The notes under the pieces were generated by a model. The model worked only from the letters and a program-made list of their open reading frames with translations, did not search any database and was not told the origin of the DNA. From NCBI GenBank assembly GCA_043808015.1, contig JAZDFI010000008.1, positions 13,271 to 77,270 on the forward strand: a DNA stretch of 64,000 nt, given 5' to 3'. The position numbers and the translations under genes are program-made. The stretch comes from Candidatus Aenigmatarchaeota archaeon (lineage in GTDB: Archaea > Aenigmatarchaeota > Aenigmatarchaeia > QMZP01 > QMZT01). This document shows, in pieces, positions 8,405-54,766 of this stretch. Position 1 is the stretch's first letter, and every line of letters begins with the position of its first letter.

Positions 8405-9545
8405 ATGAGATTTAACATTCTGCAATATCTGCCTAAAGAAACAAAGATAATGATTGACAAAGATTTAGCGCAAATTCTATTTGCCAATAAAAAACTTTGC
8501 GAATTTTCCAGAGAATACGGAATCGGCTTAAAAAATATGAGCAGATACAGAAACTGCACCCGCTCGATTCCTATAAAATTATTTCAAAAAATAGCTCAAA
8601 ATTCTCCCATTAGAATGGAAGAATTCCAAGGAAAGATGCGAATTAAAATAAACAGAATGGGCAAGTATGTCAAAATAGGACCTGTTATAAACATTGATGA
8701 AAAGTGGGTATATATTTCGGAACTCATTAAAGGTGATGGTTATATCCCGTCTACTTACTGGTATATAGTTTTTGTTAATAAAAATGAAAATTTGATTAAT
8801 GTTGTCAAGAACTTTTTTTTTATCTTTGGGCTTGCCTGAAAAACAAATTGATATTCGAAGAAGATCAGATGCAACATTCCTTACAGTCAGATCATCTCCT
8901 ATTGCATACATCCTCAACGGAATACTTGGAGTGCCTGTTGGGAAGAAGGGCGAGATCGGTATCAAAAAGTTTGTTATGAATGATAAAATATTGTCGGTGG
9001 CGGCCGTTAGAGGGGCATTTGATGCGGAAGGTGCCGCTACATTCACCGGGTCGCGGAGGATATCCATAACGTCAAATAGTCAAACATGGCTCCTATATTT
9101 AAGTAAAATATTGAAGAATCTCGGTATAAAATCCACAATATATGAAGAACGGAAAGGTAGAAAAAAACCGATATATCGTTTGTTTGTGCAACATATTATT
9201 AACATTCGCAGGTTTTATGAAATAGTCCAACCTCAGCATACGCAAAGGAGTAGAAAACTTAGAGAAATCATTGAAACGTACAGCAAACCATATTTTGGTG
9301 TCGGGTATCTGAGGAAACCCATACTTCTTTCGATAAAATCAGGAAATACGAGAAGATCAAAAATAGCAGAAGACATATCACAAAATCCTATAACAGTTGG
9401 AAATAATATCAAATGGTTAAGAAAAAGAGGACTGATAAGGCCTTCAAAAATGGTTTATACGAACAATGGTGGCTTCTATGAATATATTTTGACAGAGATG
9501 GGGCTGAAATACCTAAGAGATGACACTCTCTCTTTTTTTGATTAG
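8405..9545 (+). pseudogene. HTH + double-motif LAGLIDADG homing-endonuclease-like gene, split by a +1 frameshift in a T9 homopolymer (8813-8821); either a pseudogene or a homopolymer sequencing error
   Basis: Motif 1 ISELIKGDGYI lies in frame A (8405-8839); motif 2 VAAVRGAFDAEGAA lies in frame B (8799-9545); removing one T joins ...NVVKNFF to LSLGLPEKQ; the region is visibly AT-rich relative to its flanks. Confidence 0.6.
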
Positions 9546-39439: not shown

Positions 39440-40753
39440 ATGGCCAATAAAGTTGTCCATCACGATGCACATCCAGCACTCAAACGCGAGATAACGCTGT
39501 GGCAGGCGACCCTTACGGGCATAGGCCTTATCCTTGGCGCAGGCATTTACGCGCTGATTGGAAAGGCGTCAGCTATCGCTGGTAACGGCGTGTGGCTTTC
39601 ATTCGCACTGTCTGCGCTGGTGGCGATATTTACGGGCCTGAGCTACGCTGAGCTCAGTTCGATATTTCCCAAGGCCGGCGCAGAGTATGTTTACAGCAAA
39701 CACGCGTTCGGCAGGAAGCTCGCCTTCATAATCGGCTGGCTGGTAATAATATCCGGGTTCGTGTTTTCAGCGACGGTTGCGTTCGGCTTCGCCGGCTATT
39801 TCGAAAAGCTTTTCGGCGCGCCTTACATGCTGACAGCAGTAGTGCTCATTTTGCTGCTATCCTTCCTGGTTTTCTATGGCATCAAGGAATCGGTCTGGTT
39901 CGGGGTGATAGCGACATTGATCGAGATGGTAGGCCTTATCATAGTAATCATACTCGGCATTCCCTACCTAGGCCGGGTGGATTATTTTGATTTTCCAAGT
40001 CTTACGGGCGTCTTCACAGCGGCAGCTCTCGTGTTTTTTGCGTATGTGGGATTCGAACAGATATCCCGTTTGTCCGAGGAGACGAAGAATCCGAGGGTCA
40101 ACATCCATCGCGCGACTCTGTTGGCCATCGCAGTAACGACAATACTTTACATACTCGTCGCTGTCGCTGCTGTATCGATACTCGACTGGAACGTCTTAGG
40201 CGCTTCGAATGCCCCGATTGCGGACATCGCTTCAAAAATACTCGGGCCGCAGGGCTTCGTCGTTCTCTCGATAATCGCGCTGTTCGCGACTGCGAATACC
40301 GTCCTCTTCATGATGGTGGCGACCGCGCGCATGATTTATGGCGTAGGCAAATCGTTCTCGCACGAAAGCATATTGGCGCGCGTGCACTCGAAGACCCGCA
40401 CGCCCTGGGTGGCGACAATAATAACTGCCGTATTTTCGGTCGTCGCGCTCGGCTTCGGAAAGATAGACGTAGTCGCGAACATGACGGACTTCCTGATATT
40501 CGTCGTGTTCATCGTCATAAACGCCGCGGCGATAAAGCTGCGCTACACCAGCGAGCGCGAAGCGCATCATTTCAAGATGCCACTCAATATAGGACGCTTC
40601 CCGATTATACCCGTATTCGGCATAGTGTCATGCATCGCACTGATGGCCCACGTGAATTTAGACATAGTGGTTTATTCCGTTATTACGATCGCGATAGGCT
40701 TCGCGATAGCCGAAATCCTGGAGAGAAAAGGCATAAAGGCAAAATTCGAATAA
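39440..40753 (+). CDS. APC-superfamily amino acid permease
   Basis: 12 TM; AGAEYVYS/GFEQIS motifs typical of APC transporters; start set at MANKVV to avoid overlap with the ZIP gene. Confidence 0.85.
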   Translation: MANKVVHHDAHPALKREITLWQATLTGIGLILGAGIYALIGKASAIAGNGVWLSFALSALVAIFTGLSYAELSSIFPKAGAEYVYSKHAFGRKLAFIIGWLVIISGFVFSATVAFGFAGYFEKLFGAPYMLTAVVLILLLSFLVFYGIKESVWFGVIATLIEMVGLIIVIILGIPYLGRVDYFDFPSLTGVFTAAALVFFAYVGFEQISRLSEETKNPRVNIHRATLLAIAVTTILYILVAVAAVSILDWNVLGASNAPIADIASKILGPQGFVVLSIIALFATANTVLFMMVATARMIYGVGKSFSHESILARVHSKTRTPWVATIITAVFSVVALGFGKIDVVANMTDFLIFVVFIVINAAAIKLRYTSEREAHHFKMPLNIGRFPIIPVFGIVSCIALMAHVNLDIVVYSVITIAIGFAIAEILERKGIKAKFE

Positions 40754-40784
40754 TTTTATCGCGTGTTTTTCTGAAAAAATTTTA

Positions 40785-40903
40785 AGCGGAGGGAGGGAGT
40801 TGAACCCCCTTATGCCGGTATCTGCTCAGGATGACGCAGATTGCATCTGCGTCCGTCGCTTAGTCCGCTGCAGCCGGCCACATGGCCGTTTTGTTACCTC
40901 CGC
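40785..40903 (-). tRNA. tRNA-Cys(GCA) with a 48-nt canonical-position (37/38) intron (about 40820-40867)
   Basis: Acceptor GCGGAGG/CCUCCGC with U73 (Cys identity); anticodon stem GCCGG/CCGGC; loop CUGCAG|A; T-arm GGGGG-UUCAACU-CCCUC; D-arm somewhat irregular. Confidence 0.7.
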
Positions 40904-41038
40904 TTGTTTTCGGCTTTGTCTTGGTTATAATGTGTAATAATTACATAGCATATAGATTATTAAAAATTACATTTTTCCCGTTTCCTTGGAAATGGAAGGA
41001 TAATATATATTTATGTAAAATTTCCATCTTAATTTTGT

Positions 41039-41383
41039 ATGACAGACAATGATTCATATTTGTTGTCGCTGAAACACTCCTTATGGAATGTCCTTGCCGG
41101 AACGAGGGGCGGCGTGACCAGAATATGCATACTGAAACTGCTCAGGAAGAGGCCCTACAACATAAATCAGCTCCATGAAAAACTAAAGCTGGATTACAAA
41201 ACAATTCAACATCACATAAGGGTTTTGACAAACAACAAAATAATCACGGTCGAGAACGAAAAAAAATACGGATCGATGTATTTCATCTCGCCATTTTTGG
41301 AGAAACATATGTATCTTTTTGATGAAATCTTGGGGAAAATTGGGAAAAGGGAGTTAAATAACAACGAAAATAGTATTGTATAA
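41039..41383 (+). CDS. Winged-helix (ArsR-like) transcriptional regulator
   Basis: ICILKLLRKRPYNINQLHEKLKLDYKTIQHHIRVL HTH segment; AT-rich gene. Confidence 0.6.
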   Translation: MTDNDSYLLSLKHSLWNVLAGTRGGVTRICILKLLRKRPYNINQLHEKLKLDYKTIQHHIRVLTNNKIITVENEKKYGSMYFISPFLEKHMYLFDEILGKIGKRELNNNENSIV

Positions 41384-41392
41384 AGTGATTGG

Positions 41393-41680
41393 ATGAACTA
41401 CGTGGCATTGTCGTCGCTGGTAATCGACATATTGAACATAGTAGTCGTTGGTATGCTTTTCTACGTTTATATCAAAAATTACAGGCTAATAAGGTCGAGA
41501 TATAATTTGGGTCTGGTGGTTTTTTCCCTGATTTTCCTTCTGCAAAACATAGTTATCACGCACTTGAGCTTTTTTGCGTGGCCGGCCAGCATCGGCGATG
41601 CGGTAATGCTTGACATAATAACAATAAACTTCATCGAGCTTGTCGGCATGGCGACTCTTCTTTACATAACTTGGAAGTAA
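41393..41680 (+). CDS. Small 3-TM membrane protein, unknown function; likely co-transcribed with the upstream regulator
   Basis: 95 aa, three hydrophobic helices; 9-nt spacing from the regulator gene. Confidence 0.45.
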   Translation: MNYVALSSLVIDILNIVVVGMLFYVYIKNYRLIRSRYNLGLVVFSLIFLLQNIVITHLSFFAWPASIGDAVMLDIITINFIELVGMATLLYITWK

Positions 41681-41784
41681 ACTGGAGTTTTGTGGGAATA
41701 AATTAGGAATACCGATATAAAGCGGTTTTGGCAAATAGAGTCTAGAAAAGCTATCAAGTAAAATCTTTTAAGAATAACATTAAA

Positions 41785-41865
41785 TCCACGGTCTGGTCAA
41801 AGAGGTGCGGCATTAGCCCCCCGTGATGCAGGGTTAAAATTCGCGCCCTGATCAGAAGGCCATGG
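41785..41865 (+). ncRNA. Copy 1 of an exactly duplicated 81-nt GC-rich structured element; candidate small RNA gene with upstream TATA-like box and downstream oligo-T
   Basis: Identical to 51988-52068; predicted coaxial helices CCACGG/CCAUGG, UCUGGUCA/UGAUCAGA and GGUGCG/CGCGCC; internal GUGAUGC...CUGA; followed by GGUUUUACC. Confidence 0.5.
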
Positions 41866-41920
41866 ATGGTTTTACCTGAGTACGGTTTTTAAAAACAACT
41901 AAAGAGGGAGGAGTGTATAC

Positions 41921-42277
41921 ATGAAAGTCGTAAAGAAGGATGGAAGAGAGGAAAATTTCGACCATAACAAAATCAAAATAGGCATTGAAAAAGCGGCAGA
42001 GAGGGTTGGTGTCGAAAAGGAAAGAGCTAGACTGATAGCAGAAAAATTGGCGAAGGATGTGGAAAACCATTTAAGAAGCACCGCTACTGAGAGCAATCTC
42101 ACAAGCGTGAAAAGCAGTGATATAAGACATAGGGTCATCGAGGCTCTCGAAAAAGAAGAAAAGACAATCGCCGATTCTTTGAGGGAGTACAAAAAAGAGC
42201 AGACCCACAAACAGAGCCAGGAGCAGATTCACCACACAGAAACAAGAGCAGATCCACAAACAGAAACAAAATGTTAG
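41921..42277 (+). CDS. Stand-alone ATP-cone domain protein
   Basis: MKVVKKDGREENFDHNKIKIGIEKA... matches the ATP-cone N-terminal consensus (M.VIKRDG..E.F...KI..AI.KA); GGAGG SD upstream. Confidence 0.6.
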   Translation: MKVVKKDGREENFDHNKIKIGIEKAAERVGVEKERARLIAEKLAKDVENHLRSTATESNLTSVKSSDIRHRVIEALEKEEKTIADSLREYKKEQTHKQSQEQIHHTETRADPQTETKC

Positions 42278-42541
42278 TGCTGATGACTCATGCCACAGCC
42301 TTTATTTATTTTTTTAACAATGGCACGTGAAGCAAAGCCGGACTGATGCGGAATGCTATCGAGAAAAATCAAAATATGAACTGTCAAACATGATGATCAT
42401 CCCATGGTCAAATTCTTTTGAACTGTATTTTACCACTTTAGTTGACTAAAAAACAAATTTATTGAAAAGCTATTTAAGAGGGCGCCGGGTTAACTTAAAA
42501 TATCCAGAACACTTCTTGTTTTGGCTATCGAGGGTTGTATC

Positions 42542-44160: not shown

Positions 44161-45639
44161 TCAGTAAGCTTTGGCGAAAAGCGCGGTCGCTTTCGCTGGT
44201 TTTCCGCAGATGGCGCATGCGCCTGCGTGAGCGTCACCTTCGATGCAGCGGATTGTCGCCGTCGTTTTCTCCTTCGTCTTCTCTTCGCATTCCGCGTAGC
44301 CGCACCAGTGGGCGCGGACCATCTTCTTGTTCTGTATGAGTTTTTCAAGTTCTTCGAAGTTTCTCGCGTCCTTTATGTTCGCTGTCAAAAACTCCTTGGC
44401 CTTCCTGAAAAGATTTTCCTGTATGTGATCGAGCGTAGTCGCTGCCGCGTGCTCTACGTCGCATTCTCTGACCGGTTTCTTCTCAGCCGTGTCGCGCCGC
44501 ACGAAGACGACCTGCCCGCTCTTTATGTCGCGGGGCCCGATTTCTATGCGAAGCGGCACGCCCTTCATCTCCCATTCGTTGAACTTCCAACCGGGAGAAT
44601 ATAAGTCGCGGTCGTCGAGCGTGACGCTGAATTTATGCTCCAGCGCCTTTCTGATCTTTTCGCCTTCTTTAAGCACGCTCGCTTTCGTGTCGTTGTCGTA
44701 AATAGGTATTATGACTATCTGGGTCGGGGCGATCTTCGGCGGAAGGACGAGGCCCTTGTCGTCGCCGTGCGTCATTGTAAGCGCGCCTATCGTGCGCGTC
44801 GTCAGGCCCCATGACGTCTGCCAGACCAGGCGTTCTTTTCCCTTGTCGTCCATGAACTTGATGTCGAACACTTTTGCGAAATGCTGGCCGAGCTTGTGCG
44901 ACGTCGCCATCTGCAGGCCGCGTCCGTCAGGCATCAGCGCCTCGAGCGCGATGGTGTAGTCCGCGCCTGCGAACGTTTCGCTCCTCGATTTCTTGCCCAT
45001 TAAGACGGGAATTGCGAGCTGGGTTTCTATTAGTTCTTTGTATTGACTCGCGCGGAGGGCGACTTCTTCTTCGCACTCCTTCTCGGTCGCGTGCGCGGTG
45101 TGGCCTTCCTGCCACAGGAATTCGCGTGTTCTCAGGAAAAGCCTGGTCGCCTTCACTTCCCAGCGGATTATGTTGCACCACTGGTTGATGCGAAGGGGAA
45201 GGTCACGCCAGGAGCGAATCCATTTCGCGTAAGAATCATACATTATAGTCTCGGATGTCGGGCGCAGCGCGTAGCGCTCTTCACCGTCGTCTTTCTTCTC
45301 AACCCAAGCGACTTCAGGCATGAAGCCTTCAAAATGCTCGGACTCCTTCTTCAGGAAGCGCTCGGGGATGAAGAGCGGGAAATACGCGTTCGATACGCCT
45401 GTCGCCTTTATCCTGTCGTCGAACCAGCGCTGTATCTTTTCCCATATGGCGAAGCCGTAAGGCCTTATGATCATGCAGCCGCTTATCGGAGCGTAATCCG
45501 CGAGGCCGGATTTCTGCACGAGCTGGTTATACCATTCGGAGAAATCGTCAGACTTCTTGATTTTCAGCCTGTCAGCTTCTTCTTTTGTGCCCTCTGGTTT
45601 CATGGCTTCGTGCTTTTGTCCGGCTTTTTTGTGCTCCAT
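44161..45639 (-). CDS. proS: Prolyl-tRNA synthetase, archaeal/eukaryotic type with C-terminal Zn domain
   Basis: Class II motifs; IRPYGFAIWE; C-terminal CIEGDAHAGACAICGKPA. Confidence 0.9.
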   Translation of the reverse strand: MEHKKAGQKHEAMKPEGTKEEADRLKIKKSDDFSEWYNQLVQKSGLADYAPISGCMIIRPYGFAIWEKIQRWFDDRIKATGVSNAYFPLFIPERFLKKESEHFEGFMPEVAWVEKKDDGEERYALRPTSETIMYDSYAKWIRSWRDLPLRINQWCNIIRWEVKATRLFLRTREFLWQEGHTAHATEKECEEEVALRASQYKELIETQLAIPVLMGKKSRSETFAGADYTIALEALMPDGRGLQMATSHKLGQHFAKVFDIKFMDDKGKERLVWQTSWGLTTRTIGALTMTHGDDKGLVLPPKIAPTQIVIIPIYDNDTKASVLKEGEKIRKALEHKFSVTLDDRDLYSPGWKFNEWEMKGVPLRIEIGPRDIKSGQVVFVRRDTAEKKPVRECDVEHAAATTLDHIQENLFRKAKEFLTANIKDARNFEELEKLIQNKKMVRAHWCGYAECEEKTKEKTTATIRCIEGDAHAGACAICGKPAKATALFAKAY

Positions 45640-46400: not shown

Positions 46401-47993
<1,593 letters not shown>

Positions 47994-48083: not shown

Positions 48084-48216
48084 GGGCCGATAGATCAGCG
48101 GTAATGCGCGGGCGCAAGCCTGCGGTCGCTTGAGATCGCTCGCTTTGCAAGCGAGAGGCCGTGGGTTCAAATACGCCTTCGGCACGCCGCAGGCGATGGG
48201 AATCCCACTCGGTCCA
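48084..48216 (+). tRNA. tRNA-Ala(UGC) in the 16S-23S spacer, carrying two non-canonical introns: D-loop (about 26-29 nt within 48105-48133) and T-loop (about 30 nt, about 48171-48201)
   Basis: Acceptor GGGCCGA/UCGGUCC with G3-U70 and A73; D-stem GAUC/GAUC; anticodon arm CUCGC-UUUGCAA-GCGAG; T-stem GUGGG...CCCAC split by an insert containing GCCUUCGGC; D-loop insert contains a GCAA-tetraloop hairpin. Confidence 0.75.
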
Positions 48217-48694
48217 TAAAAGCCTTTTAGAAAAAGGCTTTAGCGAAAAACGAAAGCGCGAACAATGTATATAAAGACCTGGCAACAATAATTAGTTGCT
48301 CACGCTTACGGAAAACGCAGGTGATGTCTGCGGTTTCCAAAACAATGGCTATCCAAAGCTGTTCAGAGCTGTGTCGTATCCGTGACAGGGAATGGCATTG
48401 CAGTCGGAGGGTGGCGTACGCGAGTACGATATCTGTTTTTCTGGACAAGCTAGGGCTAGCGACAACCAAATCTCAATGTCACGGATCATGCTAACCACAT
48501 TACACCGAACCGATTGCGGTTGATGCAAACCCGCTTTCGGCATATGAAGCCTTTCAGCGAACGCTGATGGGTGGATTAGAGAGGAGCGATGAATATCATA
48601 CAGTCACCTGAACGGACGCGCAAGCGCCTGTAATGACGAGGTGAACACCAATTGAGTTCCTTGATGATGAAACATTGGCGAGTTGTCCTGACAA

Positions 48695-51600
48695 AAAGGA
48701 TCTGCTACGTTGTGTGGTGGATGGTTTGGTTCGAGGGCCGAAGAAGGACGTGGCAAGCTGCGATATGCCGGGGGTAGACGCAAGCAGTCTTTGAACTCCG
48801 GATCTCTCAATGAGACTTCTTAACTTCGGTTGTTGGCCTTCGGGTCATCGGTGACGCCCTGAATTGAAACATCTTAGTAGGGGCAGGAAAAGAGAACAAT
48901 AGTTATTCCCTTAGTAGAGGCGATTGAAAAGGGAAGAGGACAAACCGAATCTTCTGGTGTAAGCCAGGAGAGATGTGGGGTTCGGACCTGTGCTCATCCT
49001 AACTTCTAAGTCCGAAGTGATCTGGAAAGATCCACGGCAAAGGGTGATAGTCCCGTAGGAGGACAGAAGAAGGTTGATAGCGGGTATCCAGAGTACCAAT
49101 GGTCGAAGATCCATTGGGAATACGGGAGCCAGTAACTCCTAATCCTAAATACACCTCGAGTCCGATAGCGCACAAGTACGGTGACGGAAAAATGAAAAGT
49201 ATCCTTAATCGGAGATTAAAAGAGCCTGAAACCATGCAACTATAGGTAGACATTGCTTCTGCTTTGCAGGAGTTTTGTCGCCCGTGCGGAAACACGCGTC
49301 AAGGAGTTTATTTTTGTGGCGAGGGTAATTCAAGTACCCATAGCGAAAGCGAGAACTGCGCAGCGGCTTCGTGCCGTCAGGCAGTCAGGTTTGAAAGAGC
49401 CTACAGTCACAAGGATAAGACCTGAAGCTAGTCGATCTAGCCCTTGGTAGGGTGAAGTCTGGCGAAAGCCAGATGGAGGCCCGGTAGAGATGCTGAGATT
49501 CAAATCGCTCACGTAACCTGGGGCTAGGAGTGAAATGCTAATCGAGATTAGCGATAGCTGGTTCCTCTCGAAATATGCCTCAGCATAGCCTGGTCGGAGA
49601 TGGATGGCGGGGTATAGATACTGATTGGGCAACCAAGGACCGAAAGGTCCAGTTGTCCTGTCAAACTCGGAATCTACCATCATCGCAGAAGACCGGAGTG
49701 GGAGCGCCGGGGTAAGCTCGGTGTTCGAAAGGGCGAGAACCCAGCCTAAAATTAAGGTCCCTAAATTCAAGCTAAGTGATAAAAAGCGTCTTCAACCTTA
49801 TACAATAGGGAAGTTGGCTCAGAAGCAGCCACCTTTTAAAGAGTGCGTAATAGCTCACCTATCTAGGTTGTGGGCCTTGAAAATGGACGGGACTAAGCTT
49901 GGTACCGATATTTTAGATTCCTAAAAGGAATATGGTAGAGAGGTGTCCTGCTAGGGCAGAAGTTCTCTCGTAAGAGGGAATGGACCTTGCAGGAATAAGA
50001 ATCTTGATGATAGTAGCAGCAATAGTGAAGTGAGACACTTCACCACCTAAAGGGCAAGGGTTCCTCAGCAACGTTCGTCGACTGAGGGTTAGTCGGTCCT
50101 AAGGCAAGCCCCAATTGGAACTTGCCGAAAGGGAAGCAGGTTAATATTCCTGCACCATGAGAATACGAGTGGCGACACAAGTTCATTTCCTGACGCTTCT
50201 GGATAAATCGATCATTTCGGTGATTAACCGGTTAAACCTGTGGAGTACCGTAATGGTGAGAAACAGGCCAAGCCGGCAATAGCTGACGTATGTCAGTTCG
50301 GTTGACTTCAGGAGCCCGTGAAAAGGGAAATGGAATGGATTTTTCATGTCCGTACCAAGAACCGTTACTGGTGCCCCTCGCTGAGAAGGCGAAGGTGTAA
50401 TAGGAAAATTCAGGTCAAGGAATTCGGCAAAATCGCCCTGTACCTTTGGTATAAGGGGTGCCTAATCTTCTGGCTCAGCCAGAACGATTAGGTCTCAGTA
50501 ACTAGTGGGTTGCGACTGTTTAACAAAAACGTAGGGGGCTGCTAGGTGGAAACGCTTTGTATAGCTCTTGAGGCCTGCCCAGTGCCGGTGTGTTAAACTG
50601 GCTAAAACCAGCCAAGCCCCGGTAAACGGCGGCGGTAACTCTGACCGTCTTAAGGTAGCGTAATCCCTTGTCGATTAATTGTCGACCTGCATGAATGGCT
50701 TAACGACATCCCAACTGTCTTGATCTGAAGCCTAGCGAACTTAGTTGTCCAGCGAATATCCTGGAGTCCTTCAGCGGGACGAGAAGACCCCATAGAGCTT
50801 TACTGCAGTCTGTTGTTGTAGTATGCTGATGGTCGCATAGCGTAAGTGGGAGCATCGCACTCAAGTCTTCGGGTTTGAGGAAGGCGTCAATGTAACACCA
50901 CTCCACCGTCAACATATTGCTTACCTTTAGGGGGACAGCAATTGATGGGCAGTTTGGCTGGGGCGGTACGCCTCTGATAAAGGATCAGAGGCGCCCTATG
51001 GTCGGCTCATTCCGGTCAGAAATCGGAAGCAGAGTGTAAGGGCAAAAGCCGGCCTGATAGGATTCTGCAAGGCAAAGAATCCTAACGCGAAAGCGTGGCC
51101 TAGCGATCCGCTGTGTCTCTATTAGCTGAGAGCCAGCTCTGTCAGAAAAGTTACCTTGGGGGTAATGGAGTCGTGGCGCGTGAGAGTCCATAACTCATTT
51201 CTCGTTCTCGATAAGTCTGAACAAAAAACGATACATACCTTGTGTATGTTAAAGCTTTTTGTCAGGACAAGCAGAAAGCAGAATATATAATCATCTGTTG
51301 GCTGTTGAGTCACACGTATCTATGCCCATTCATTGGGCTGCAAAGGTGCGTGTGATGATGAAAAATCGAGAAGTGAGAGGTCAAATCGACCGCGCTCGTT
51401 GCTTCTCCGCCGTCGGCTCGGCTCTTCCTGGACGTGCAGCAGCGTCCAAGGGTGGAGGTGTTCACTCATTAAAGAGTCACGCTAGCTGGGTTAAATACGG
51501 TGCGAGCCAGTATGGTCTATATCTGCTGAAGGTGTTGGTTACCTGAGGGTAGAATGCAATTAGTACGAAAGGAACACTGCGTTGTGGCCTCTGGTGTATC

Positions 51601-51825
51601 GGTTGTGTCTGCATTGCCGAGTAGCTACGCCGCTGAGGATAAAGGCTGAAAGCATCTAAGCCTGAAGCCTCTCCCGAAAATAGGTAACCGTTCATCAAAC
51701 TGATACGCAAGTATCGGCGCGATGAGGAAGGTCTCGTAGACGACGAGGTTGATGGAAGCGGGGTGTAAGTACCAAGCTTAGGCGAGGTATTCAGCCCACG
51801 TTACCCAATCACCTGACAGATCTTT
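48695..51825 (+). rRNA. rrl: 23S rRNA gene (archaeal), with an insertion of about 180-190 nt in the peptidyl-transferase-region sequence; boundaries approximate
   Basis: 5' region GGTGGATGG...GAAGGACGTG; sarcin-ricin-region AGTACGAAAGGAAC; helix-1 pairing GGAUCUG(48699-48705)/CAGAUCU(51817-51823); about 2945 nt excluding the insert. Confidence 0.85.
51195..51385 (+). other. Candidate 23S rRNA intron/insertion splitting the conserved ...AAGAGUUCAUAUCGAC... (E. coli about 2470-2480) segment; flanked by an imperfect 15-nt duplication of the target (GUGAGAGUCCAUAAC / GUGAGAGGUCAAAUC)
   Basis: Upstream exon matches archaeal consensus up to ...AGUCCAUAAC, and consensus resumes at ...GGUCAAAUCGACCGCGCUCG; no endonuclease ORF inside. 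Confidence 0.5.
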
Positions 51826-51987
51826 GTCAAAAGGACAACTCGCCAATTATGTTTCCTCTATTTTTATTAATGGAGAACTGCATAGCGTCAGCTATCGCTG
51901 GCGTTACTTGATTTTGAGTCGGTAAAACCGGCAACCAGCGGACGCCAGAGTAACATATAAAAAACTTTGTGAACCAATAATAATTGG

Positions 51988-52127: not shown

Positions 52128-52470
52128 TGTTGAGCCGGGTGGATAGCTCGCCTTGCGCAAGCAGGGAGGTAAGTTCCATACACTCAAGCCAGCACCCAAA
52201 CGTGCTGGTAAAGCACGCTGATGAAAATCAGGGTTCGAGAGAGCCTGTCCGATCGCAGAAACCACCTTCGCTTCGGAGCCATGACTCCGCAAGGGAGAGC
52301 GACGAAGGAGCGCAAGGGTGAAATTGAACCGGGCCGTGCGGGTGAAAGCGTAGGGCAAGCATGCAGGTTTCCTGTGTGAACCCGATCGCGAGTCAGAAAA
52401 ATGCTATCGCCACGTTCGCGCTTCAAAGCGCGCGTGATGACAGAAAATGGGCTATGCCCGGCACAACACC
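52128..52470 (+). ncRNA. rnpB: RNase P RNA (archaeal type A-like)
   Basis: CR-I-like AGGGAGGUAAGUUCCAUAC; CR-II/III-like AAGGGUGAAAUUG...GGGUGAAAGCG; CR-V-like GAUGACAGAAAAUGGGCUAUGCC; P1 pairing UGUUGAGCCGGG/CCCGGCACAACA; TTTTTAAAG box about 20 nt upstream; overlapping ORFs in the track are judged spurious. Confidence 0.65.
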
Positions 52471-54657: not shown

Positions 54658-54766
54658 GGGCCTGTAGCTCAATCGGCAGAGCACCAGACTCTTAGATGTT
54701 ATGAGGCGCTTGCGCCCGTGACTGCGTGATATCTGGGGGTCGCGGGTTCGATTCCCGCCGGGCTCA
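54658..54766 (+). tRNA. tRNA-Lys(CUU) with a 36-nt canonical 37/38 intron (54695-54730)
   Basis: Acceptor GGGCCUG/CGGGCUC; D-arm GCUC-AAUCGGCA-GAGC; anticodon stem CCAGA/UCUGG; loop CUCUUA|A; T-arm GCGGG-UUCGAUU-CCCGC; A73. Confidence 0.8.

Follow-up and report, generated by a model that had tools for sequence, protein, structure and literature searches.

A spacer tRNA-Ala(UGC) gene with two probable bulge-helix-bulge introns, in the D-loop and in the T-loop, in an aenigmarchaeal rRNA operon

The interrupted tRNA gene in the rRNA spacer

An rRNA operon of archaeal type lies in the 64-kb stretch of contig JAZDFI010000008.1 that was analysed here and is called the window throughout, and its 16S-23S spacer contains a gene for tRNA-Ala(UGC) whose 133-nt precursor is interrupted in the D-loop and in the T-loop (Table 1). 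The small-subunit (SSU) and large-subunit (LSU) rRNA genes were located with Rfam. The actual 3' end of the 16S rRNA is GGAUCACCUCC, which places the tRNA locus inside the spacer. An earlier note, made from the sequence alone, had read the locus as a tRNA-Ala(UGC) of the spacer, interrupted by introns in the D-loop and the T-loop, and this reading is borne out by splicing in silico and by the relatives of the gene. The inserts, which the note had estimated at about 27 and about 30 nt, are indeed two in number, with actual lengths of 30 and 31 nt. The first separates U20 from A21 (position 20/21) and the second A59 from U60 (position 59/60); as had been noted, the canonical site 37/38 is free of any interruption.

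Removal of both inserts in silico leaves a 72-nt RNA that ARAGORN identifies as tRNA-Ala(tgc) with a canonical cloverleaf. The alanine identity features are in place: G48086 (G3) pairs with U48213 (U70), the discriminator A73 is at 48216 and the anticodon UGC at 48146-48. G3:U70, A73 and the alanine anticodon are retained by every relative. Also present are the UUUGCAA anticodon loop and a T-arm split into the strands GUGGG and CCCAC, both of which the earlier note had picked out together with G3-U70 and A73. A CCA end is not encoded. The three exons are colinear on one strand within 133 nt, so that the gene is neither split nor permuted.

Run on the whole window, ARAGORN called neither the unspliced gene nor any other tRNA, and no Rfam match was obtained in the spacer at the gathering threshold. 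In a permissive Rfam scan of the spacer the tRNA-Ala locus was the sole match, at 25.2 bits versus a gathering score of 29; the alignment takes up a 31-nt D-loop insertion and misplaces the 3' half. No conventional tRNA, which the earlier note had considered as an alternative, was found elsewhere in the spacer, either by ARAGORN with and without its intron options or by the permissive Rfam scan. A tRNA-Leu call made by ARAGORN in the spacer appeared only at the lowered -ps90 score threshold and was dismissed as spurious.

In the archaeal bulge-helix-bulge (BHB) motif, a 4-bp helix (H) lies between two 3-nt bulges, each of which is cut after its second nucleotide (PMC3239211). In the predicted folds the junction geometry is of the BHB type at both introns of the window tRNA; the lack of such structures at the boundaries had been named in the earlier note as a reason to doubt the gene. 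At intron 1, the outer flanking helix h is the D stem (GAUC/GAUC, 48093-96/48134-37), H is formed by exon AGCG (48097-100) and intron CGCU (48127-30), and the bulges are GU↓A (48101-03) and UG↓A (48131-33), with arrows at the cut sites. The inner helix h', AU/GU (48104-05/48125-26), is followed by a hairpin with a 7-bp stem (48107-13/48118-24) and the GCAA tetraloop that had been recognised earlier. This arrangement is a strict 3-4-3 hBHBh' motif and the minimum-free-energy (MFE) structure of the isolated arm, and in the predicted fold of the full precursor the H pairs have probabilities of 0.74-0.86.

At intron 2, h is the T stem (GUGGG/CCCAC, 48161-65/48204-08), H pairs exon UUCA (U54-A57, 48166-69) with intron UGGG (48197-200), and both bulges read AA↓U (48170-72 and 48201-03). 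Helix h' (CGCCU/AGGCG, 48174-78/48191-95) is preceded by an A.A mismatch (48173/48196). The predicted and conserved hairpin of this intron consists of CGCCU/AGGCG plus CGG/CCG closing a CACG loop. The UUCG tetraloop that the earlier note had seen here did not hold up, as C-UUCG-G has only one closing pair.

Table 1. Positions of the spacer tRNA-Ala(UGC) gene, of other features of the window and of the three-intron gene in two relatives
Feature	Position	Strand	Description
pre-tRNA-Ala(UGC)	48084..48216	+	133 nt; exon 1 / intron 1 / exon 2 / intron 2 / exon 3
exon 1	48084..48102	+	GGGCCGAUAGAUCAGCGGU; nt 1-20: acceptor 5' strand GGGCCGA, U8 A9, D-stem 5' strand GAUC, D-loop AGCGGU
intron 1	48103..48132	+	AAUGCGCGGGCGCAAGCCUGCGGUCGCUUG; 30 nt, D-loop, 20/21 (U20-A21)
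exon 2	48133..48171	+	AGAUCGCUCGCUUUGCAAGCGAGAGGCCGUGGGUUCAAA; nt 21-59: A21, D-stem 3' strand, anticodon arm CUCGC-UUUGCAA-GCGAG, variable loop AGGCC, T-stem 5' strand GUGGG, T-loop UUCAAA
intron 2	48172..48202	+	UACGCCUUCGGCACGCCGCAGGCGAUGGGAA; 31 nt, T-loop, 59/60 (A59-U60)
exon 3	48203..48216	+	UCCCACUCGGUCCA; nt 60-73: U60, T-stem 3' strand CCCAC, acceptor 3' strand UCGGUCC, discriminator A73
three-intron spacer tRNA-Ala	L157 1890-2492; L158 1094-1696	minus	GCA_012975005.1, GCA_011772255.1
hairpin 3' of the tRNA	48220-48240	+	AAGCCUUUU-AGA-AAAGGCUU, just 3' of the discriminator
SSU rRNA	from 46401		Rfam
insert in 16S rRNA	47808-47951		144 nt
16S 3' end	47982-47992		GGAUCACCUCC
LSU rRNA	48693-51828	+	Rfam; 3136 nt
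ProRS gene	44161-45639	minus	adjoins the rRNA operon
RNase P RNA candidate	52130-52466	+	337 nt
tRNA-Lys(CUU)	54658-54766	+	about 38-nt intron at 37/38
LAGLIDADG_3 ORF	8799-9545	+	E = 3.7e-13
LAGLIDADG_3 ORF	20538-21422	minus	E = 3.4e-9
ORF-poor region	40753-42490	both	about 1.7 kb

Exons, introns and junctions in related archaea

The gene for prolyl-tRNA synthetase (ProRS) adjoins the rRNA operon, and its closest named homologs are from Candidatus Aenigmarchaeota (75% identity; up to 92% in other relatives). On this protein evidence the window is assigned to the Aenigmarchaeota (DPANN). The gene order ProRS-CBS-rRNA is kept among the relatives, denoted below by L numbers, and their spacers could thus be retrieved. 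L121, which is on a 1.1-Mb contig (ERZ25039515 contig_22876), and L122/L123 (ProRS 84-85%) have exons identical to those of the window and inserts at both of its sites, of 39 and 49 nt in L121 and of 30 and 38 nt in L122/L123, with sequences unlike those of the window. In a metagenome scan that used the exact 39-nt exon 2 as the query and was blind to its flanks, 30 contigs were obtained; the same 39 nt are present in L121-L123 and in L156. Together with the window and L121-L123, the contigs yielded 23 distinct versions of the gene, of which 22 are complete and have a 59/60 intron, 26-147 nt long. Ten of these 22 have in addition a 20/21 intron of 30-60 nt. The remaining version, L145, is truncated at the contig start and lacks a T-loop intron.

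Outside this clade the picture differs. When species-representative genomes were first scanned with a degenerate pattern for the middle exon, 120 loci were revealed, mostly from Thermoplasmata and Methanomicrobia and none from Aenigmarchaeota; the rRNAs of these loci are only about 74% (16S) and 66-68% (23S) identical to those of the window. In 117 of them the tRNA-Ala is uninterrupted and in three (L018, L093, L107) an insert directly follows UUCAAA; a D-loop insert was found in none of the 120. Inserts at 59/60 of the spacer tRNA-Ala thus occur in 22 of 23 versions within the clade versus 3 of 120 loci beyond it. Within the clade the 59/60 intron is present down to 16S identities of 77-84% to the window (L141, L127, L125, L136), which by the usual 16S thresholds corresponds roughly to order- to class-level depth. 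The rarity that the earlier note ascribed to a 59/60-like T-loop intron in the rRNA-operon tRNA holds for the spacer tRNA-Ala outside the clade; the position as such is no rarity among non-canonical sites, being well established and used also in tRNA-Cys and tRNA-Pro of ARMAN-2 (PMC3239211).

The three outlying loci are of unequal kind. L107 (WOYO01000059.1), from a metagenome-assembled genome (MAG) of the Thermoplasmata, has a 42-nt 59/60 insert with UGAA in the place of H. L018 (JALWPZ010000216.1), also with a 59/60 insert, is on an archaeal rRNA contig in a MAG labelled 'Campylobacteraceae bacterium', likely a case of mis-binning. In L093 (SKVC01000086.1), from Thermoplasmata, the insert-bearing copy has a defective 3' acceptor strand and stands beside a normal copy.

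The 20/21 intron is patchily distributed. It is absent in L138 (16S 96.5% over a 403-nt fragment) and in L129/L131 (90.8%), and present in L128/L141 (16S 77%) with a sequence unrelated to that of the window. Among named Aenigmarchaeota assemblies, L155 has the 59/60 intron only, L156 a 17-nt intron at 20/21 and a 59-nt intron at 59/60, and in L157 and L158 the precursor, of 603 nt, is interrupted three times, by introns of 40 nt at 20/21, 456 nt at 37/38 and 35 nt at 59/60. All four splice in silico to a 72-nt tRNA-Ala(UGC), and insert lengths across the relatives range from 17 to 456 nt. The 37/38 intron of L157/L158 forms a strict hBHBh' motif and contains an open reading frame (ORF) of 139 amino acids that ends at the 3' edge of the intron; a protein-coding BHB intron in a tRNA seems unusual. 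The ORF, as it occurs in L157, gave no significant Pfam match. By eye, its pattern CLFCG...ICHRKDG...VCFKCHKAIH is HNH-like.

A 17-nt hairpin module (CAGGAGCUGACGCUUCC; C(A/G)GGAGCUGACGCUUCC) is common to the 20/21 intron of L142 and to the 135-147-nt 59/60 introns of L127, L128, L135, L137, L139 and L141, which suggests that intron sequence may have moved between positions. Introns 1 and 2 of the window have no significant relation to each other. The hairpin that immediately follows the tRNA in the window, and which could be a processing or pause signal, recurs in L121, L122, L133, L134, L140 and L142, with a compensatory change from C-G to U-A in L134 and L140. The 20/21 intron of L142 contains a near-copy of this hairpin along with the AGCGAAAAC that comes after it.

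Exons 1 and 3 of the relatives are 91-100% identical to those of the window, the introns 20-75%; only in the closest relative, L152, do the introns lie above that range (93% and 84%). Exon 1 is identical in 11 of the 22 distinct complete versions, the window included, and its variants still pair with exon 3 across both introns. Compensatory changes in the acceptor stem replace A-U by G-C at 7:66 (four distinct sequences) and C-G by U-A at 5:68 (two). Relatives at 91-96% 16S identity have identical exons and introns that differ in sequence and length, which lifts the locus far beyond chance. That the gene is a decaying pseudogene with two insertions is hardly credible on this evidence: it would account for the failure of standard detectors and has a possible parallel in the defective copy of L093, yet the cloverleaf formed by the 72 exon positions is perfect, the exons are conserved and their stem changes compensated, and the 59/60 insert is kept to about 77-84% 16S identity.

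The pairing at the junctions is kept as well. In the T-loop motif, the intron strand of H is UGGG, UGGA, UGAA or UGAG (UGAU once) opposite exon UUCA, fully paired (4/4) in 21 of 22 versions. In fixed-register constructs H is paired in 98.8% of cells, with variation between U-A and U-G only, and the first h' pair is of the AU, CG, UA and GU types. The register given above is paired in 83.8% of cells versus at most 57.5% for any slid register. In the D-loop motif, CGCU or CGUU pairs with AGCG in 93.8% of cells, with an A.C mismatch in L121 and L142, and the register is paired in 92% versus at most 38.6% when slid. The window and L152 differ in the tetraloop (GCAA versus GCGA, still GNRA) and in the pair U48105-G48125, which is U-A in L152; these differences are consistent with the fold and were counted for the BHB reading. 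An alternative D-loop register, H = GCGG/UCGC with a cut one nucleotide later, was rejected, as it would give differing mature D-loops among the relatives and, read by eye, is unpaired in L128 and L156.

Several observations weigh against the gene as a tRNA with two BHB introns. Two of the pairs in the H helix of intron 2 are G.U, and its motif falls short of a strict 3-4-3 structure because h' begins after the A.A mismatch. When the T-arm of the window is folded in isolation, its BHB conformer lies 5.5 kcal/mol above the MFE structure, a shifted UUC/GAA fold, and the ensemble probability of the H pairs in the window is close to zero; the T-loop BHB is the predicted MFE structure in only 5 of 22 relatives. 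Strict motifs are required by some types of the EndA endonuclease (PMC3239211). Covariation in the D-loop motif is thin, since the eight distinct introns are related, and 29 of 500 shuffles reach its score. The conservation of exon 2 in the metagenome set is by design, the set having been chosen by exact identity to it. Finally, a scan of 50 ORFs of the 64-kb window revealed neither EndA nor the RtcB ligase.

The thermodynamic points bear most directly on where intron 2 is cut. A real T-loop intron might be excised at 58/59, at 60/61 or from the UUC/GAA fold instead of at 59/60, and in the window the repetition of A and U at both junctions means that cuts at 58/59, 59/60 and 60/61 all give the same mature UUCAAAU, while the UUC/GAA fold is the more stable one. 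The relatives render this quite improbable. The shifted register is complete only in the window, with one or two of its three pairs formed elsewhere, and it was rejected as the functional register of the T-arm; the BHB register, in contrast, is fully paired in all but one version, and the 59/60 cut is the only one by which every relative, L136 with its 3' bulge UU↓U among them, ends up with the same T-loop, UUCAAAU.

Spacer tRNAs serve as processing sites for RNase P and RNase Z, and the inserts form stable predicted hairpins, so that the locus might be imagined as a spacer element that resembles a tRNA, retains the inserts as enlarged D- and T-loops and acts only as a signal in pre-rRNA processing. 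This is very unlikely. The identity elements for alanyl-tRNA synthetase (AlaRS) and the anticodon loop are strictly kept, and the inserts vary from 17 to 456 nt and change freely in sequence, yet the 3-4-3 junction geometry persists. The inserts also tie up G18 and U54-A57, which the tRNA elbow needs. In L157 and L158 the ORF-bearing insert occupies the canonical 37/38 site, and a 456-nt insert of this kind, like the 147-nt 59/60 introns of other relatives, makes retention in a working tRNA implausible.

The two inserts of the window share a 9-bp complementarity (GCCUGCGGU, 48118-26, with GCCGCAGGC, 48186-94; duplex -24.7 kcal/mol) and could in principle form a composite motif that is removed or acts jointly. 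The duplex is no better than those of shuffled sequences (z = -0.61; 27% of the shuffles are at least as stable), none of the 10 two-intron relatives has a significant pairing, the complementarity is partly lost in L152 (z = +0.72, again at shuffle level), and a T-loop intron without a D-loop partner is common among the relatives. Inter-intron pairing, at shuffle-level stability and without conservation, was rejected; the odds that it is real seem negligible.

Based on these observations, the locus is very probably a functional, colinear tRNA-Ala(UGC) gene with two BHB introns at 20/21 and 59/60. The excision of both introns is inferred from the gene structure, the BHB geometry and the conservation among relatives.

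The surrounding operon

A second kind of insert, 144 nt long, lies near the 3' end of the 16S rRNA between AAGUCGUA and ACAAGGUAACC; in our own alignment the site falls in the linker of helices 44 and 45, at about E. coli position 1499/1500. Because of this insert, the Rfam SSU match ends early at 47839 and leaves an orphan 3' match at 47957-81. Its boundaries are BHB-like, with a 4-bp GUCG/CGAU helix, the bulges UA↓A and AA↓A and a 12-bp inner stem in which compensatory changes occur among the relatives. Inserts of 69-212 nt are present at this site in 27 of 30 readable relative loci (28 of 31 with the window) and absent in L136, L144 and L146. The insert is either an intron or a retained expansion segment. 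Long processing stems flank both rRNAs in the transcript of the window.

The 23S rRNA is longer than its 2987-nt model and probably carries at least one insert. About 300 nt downstream of it lies a candidate for an archaeal RNase P RNA (Rfam RF00373, 56 bits with a gathering score of 84, E = 5.7e-13; the model has 288 nt), which may share a transcription unit with the spacer tRNA that RNase P would process. Further downstream, a tRNA-Lys(CUU) gene has an ordinary intron at 37/38; it scores 58.7 bits with Rfam and was not called by ARAGORN as run.

LAGLIDADG_3 domains are encoded by two free-standing ORFs outside the rRNA genes, the first of which overlaps the 3' end of the region of the threonyl-tRNA synthetase (ThrRS) gene. 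In the relatives L156-L158, LAGLIDADG ORFs occur within the rRNA regions. A region of about 1.7 kb (Table 1) is without an ORF of at least 120 amino acids on both strands.

Processing of the transcript and known systems

In the proposed pathway, the 3' portion of intron 1 would be base-paired to exon nucleotides A14-G18 and that of intron 2 to U54-A57, giving two 4-bp helices, each with a 3-nt bulge on either side and stacked on the D stem and the T stem, respectively. EndA would cut each bulge after its second nucleotide, and an RtcB-type ligase would join the three exons and probably circularise the introns. As the H helices sequester G18 and U54-A57, the elbow between the D-loop and the T-loop (G18 and G19 with U55 and C56) would be barred until both introns are removed and would form only after splicing. 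From these predicted structures we infer that splicing precedes all elbow-dependent steps. The ends would be completed by RNase P, RNase Z and the CCA-adding enzyme, the latter being proposed because no CCA is encoded.

EndA is described as cutting the BHB motifs of pre-rRNA and of tRNA introns alike (PMC7714728, PMC10515664). A single enzyme could thus service every cut in the transcript, which makes it reasonable to propose, as the earlier note had done, that removal of the introns is co-processed with rRNA maturation; such a coupling is plausible, and the BHB-like insert of the 16S rRNA and the long processing stems belong to the same transcript. The BHB motifs of pre-rRNA provide the same structural signal on the same primary transcript, presumably for the same enzyme as the spacer tRNA, but they serve to release or circularise rRNA, whereas those of the window would restore a tRNA between the rRNAs.

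In Aenigmarchaeota the 59/60 intron might even have been retained for a role in processing of the rRNA operon and not as a neutral passenger. This proposal, which we regard as unlikely, draws on the persistence of the intron at 16S identities of about 77-84% despite complete turnover of its sequence and length and the repeated appearance of extra introns at 20/21 and 37/38, an ORF-bearing one among them. If it were true, EndA cleavage in the tRNA would time or gate the processing of the spacer and the release of tRNA-Ala relative to the excision of 16S and 23S rRNA; alternatively, the intron would shield the tRNA of the single rRNA operon from integrating elements.

For specialists in archaeal tRNA processing the gene will not be surprising; it is a clean and well-supported case. 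It extends multi-intron, non-canonical tRNA disruption to the Aenigmarchaeota and to a tRNA of the rRNA operon. Its relatives form a natural series of a single gene with one, two or three introns of 17-456 nt, in which the gain, loss and turnover of introns and the substrate range of EndA can be followed. Several presumed EndA substrates on one primary transcript are, moreover, convenient for ordering tRNA splicing relative to rRNA maturation. Since ARAGORN is silent and Rfam remains below its gathering score, genomes of this phylum will seem to lack tRNA-Ala(UGC) and a spacer tRNA. Incomplete tRNA sets have been taken to point to undetected disrupted genes, and in several DPANN lineages EndA variants are associated with more disrupted tRNAs; an 'L3' loop of the DPANN enzyme has been described as well (PMC5829648). 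In the literature searched, neither an intron-bearing spacer tRNA-Ala nor a tRNA intron of Aenigmarchaeota was found to have been reported, which is no proof of absence.

ARMAN-2 resembles the present case in being a DPANN archaeon with BHB-type T-loop introns at 59/60 and with more than one non-canonical intron in one tRNA. Its tRNA-Cys has a 59/60 intron that is cut by EndA in vitro, and its tRNA-Pro has introns at 53/54 and 59/60 (PMC3239211). These tRNAs are, however, other isoacceptors and lie outside the rRNA spacer. The motif of the ARMAN-2 tRNA-Cys is a relaxed hBH, whereas in the window each motif has its two bulges and its two flanking helices; ARMAN-2 has its second intron in the T-loop too, the window in the D-loop; and the EndA of ARMAN is of the special epsilon2 type.

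D-loop introns are known from the pre-tRNA-Glu(UUC) of Methanopyrus kandleri, with introns at 20b/21 and 37/38, and from the pre-tRNA-Thr of Aeropyrum pernix, and it has been argued that the tertiary core cannot form until a D-loop intron has been spliced out (PMC5829648, PMC3241643). Like the spacer tRNA of the window, that of M. kandleri has two introns, one of them in the D-loop directly ahead of position 21. Its D-loop motif is a relaxed HBh', whereas that of the window is a strict 3-4-3 hBHBh', and its partner intron is at the canonical 37/38 instead of 59/60. In Thermoproteales, tRNAs contain up to three introns and intron transposition has been described (PMC4033280). Up to three BHB introns per tRNA are also found in L157 and L158, and related intron sequence at different positions, 20/21 and 59/60, in the 17-nt module. 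The Thermoproteales, however, are Crenarchaeota in which many tRNAs are affected genome-wide, whereas here one gene of DPANN archaea was examined. Introns at both positions, and tRNAs with several introns, are documented as substrates of EndA in other archaea (PMC3239211, PMC5829648). The positions 59/60 and of the 20/21 type, as well as multi-intron tRNAs, are thus already documented in ARMAN, Methanopyrus and Thermoproteales; new are the lineage, the gene, a tRNA of the rRNA operon, the combination of 20/21 and 59/60 with an empty 37/38 site, and the deep persistence of the 59/60 intron.

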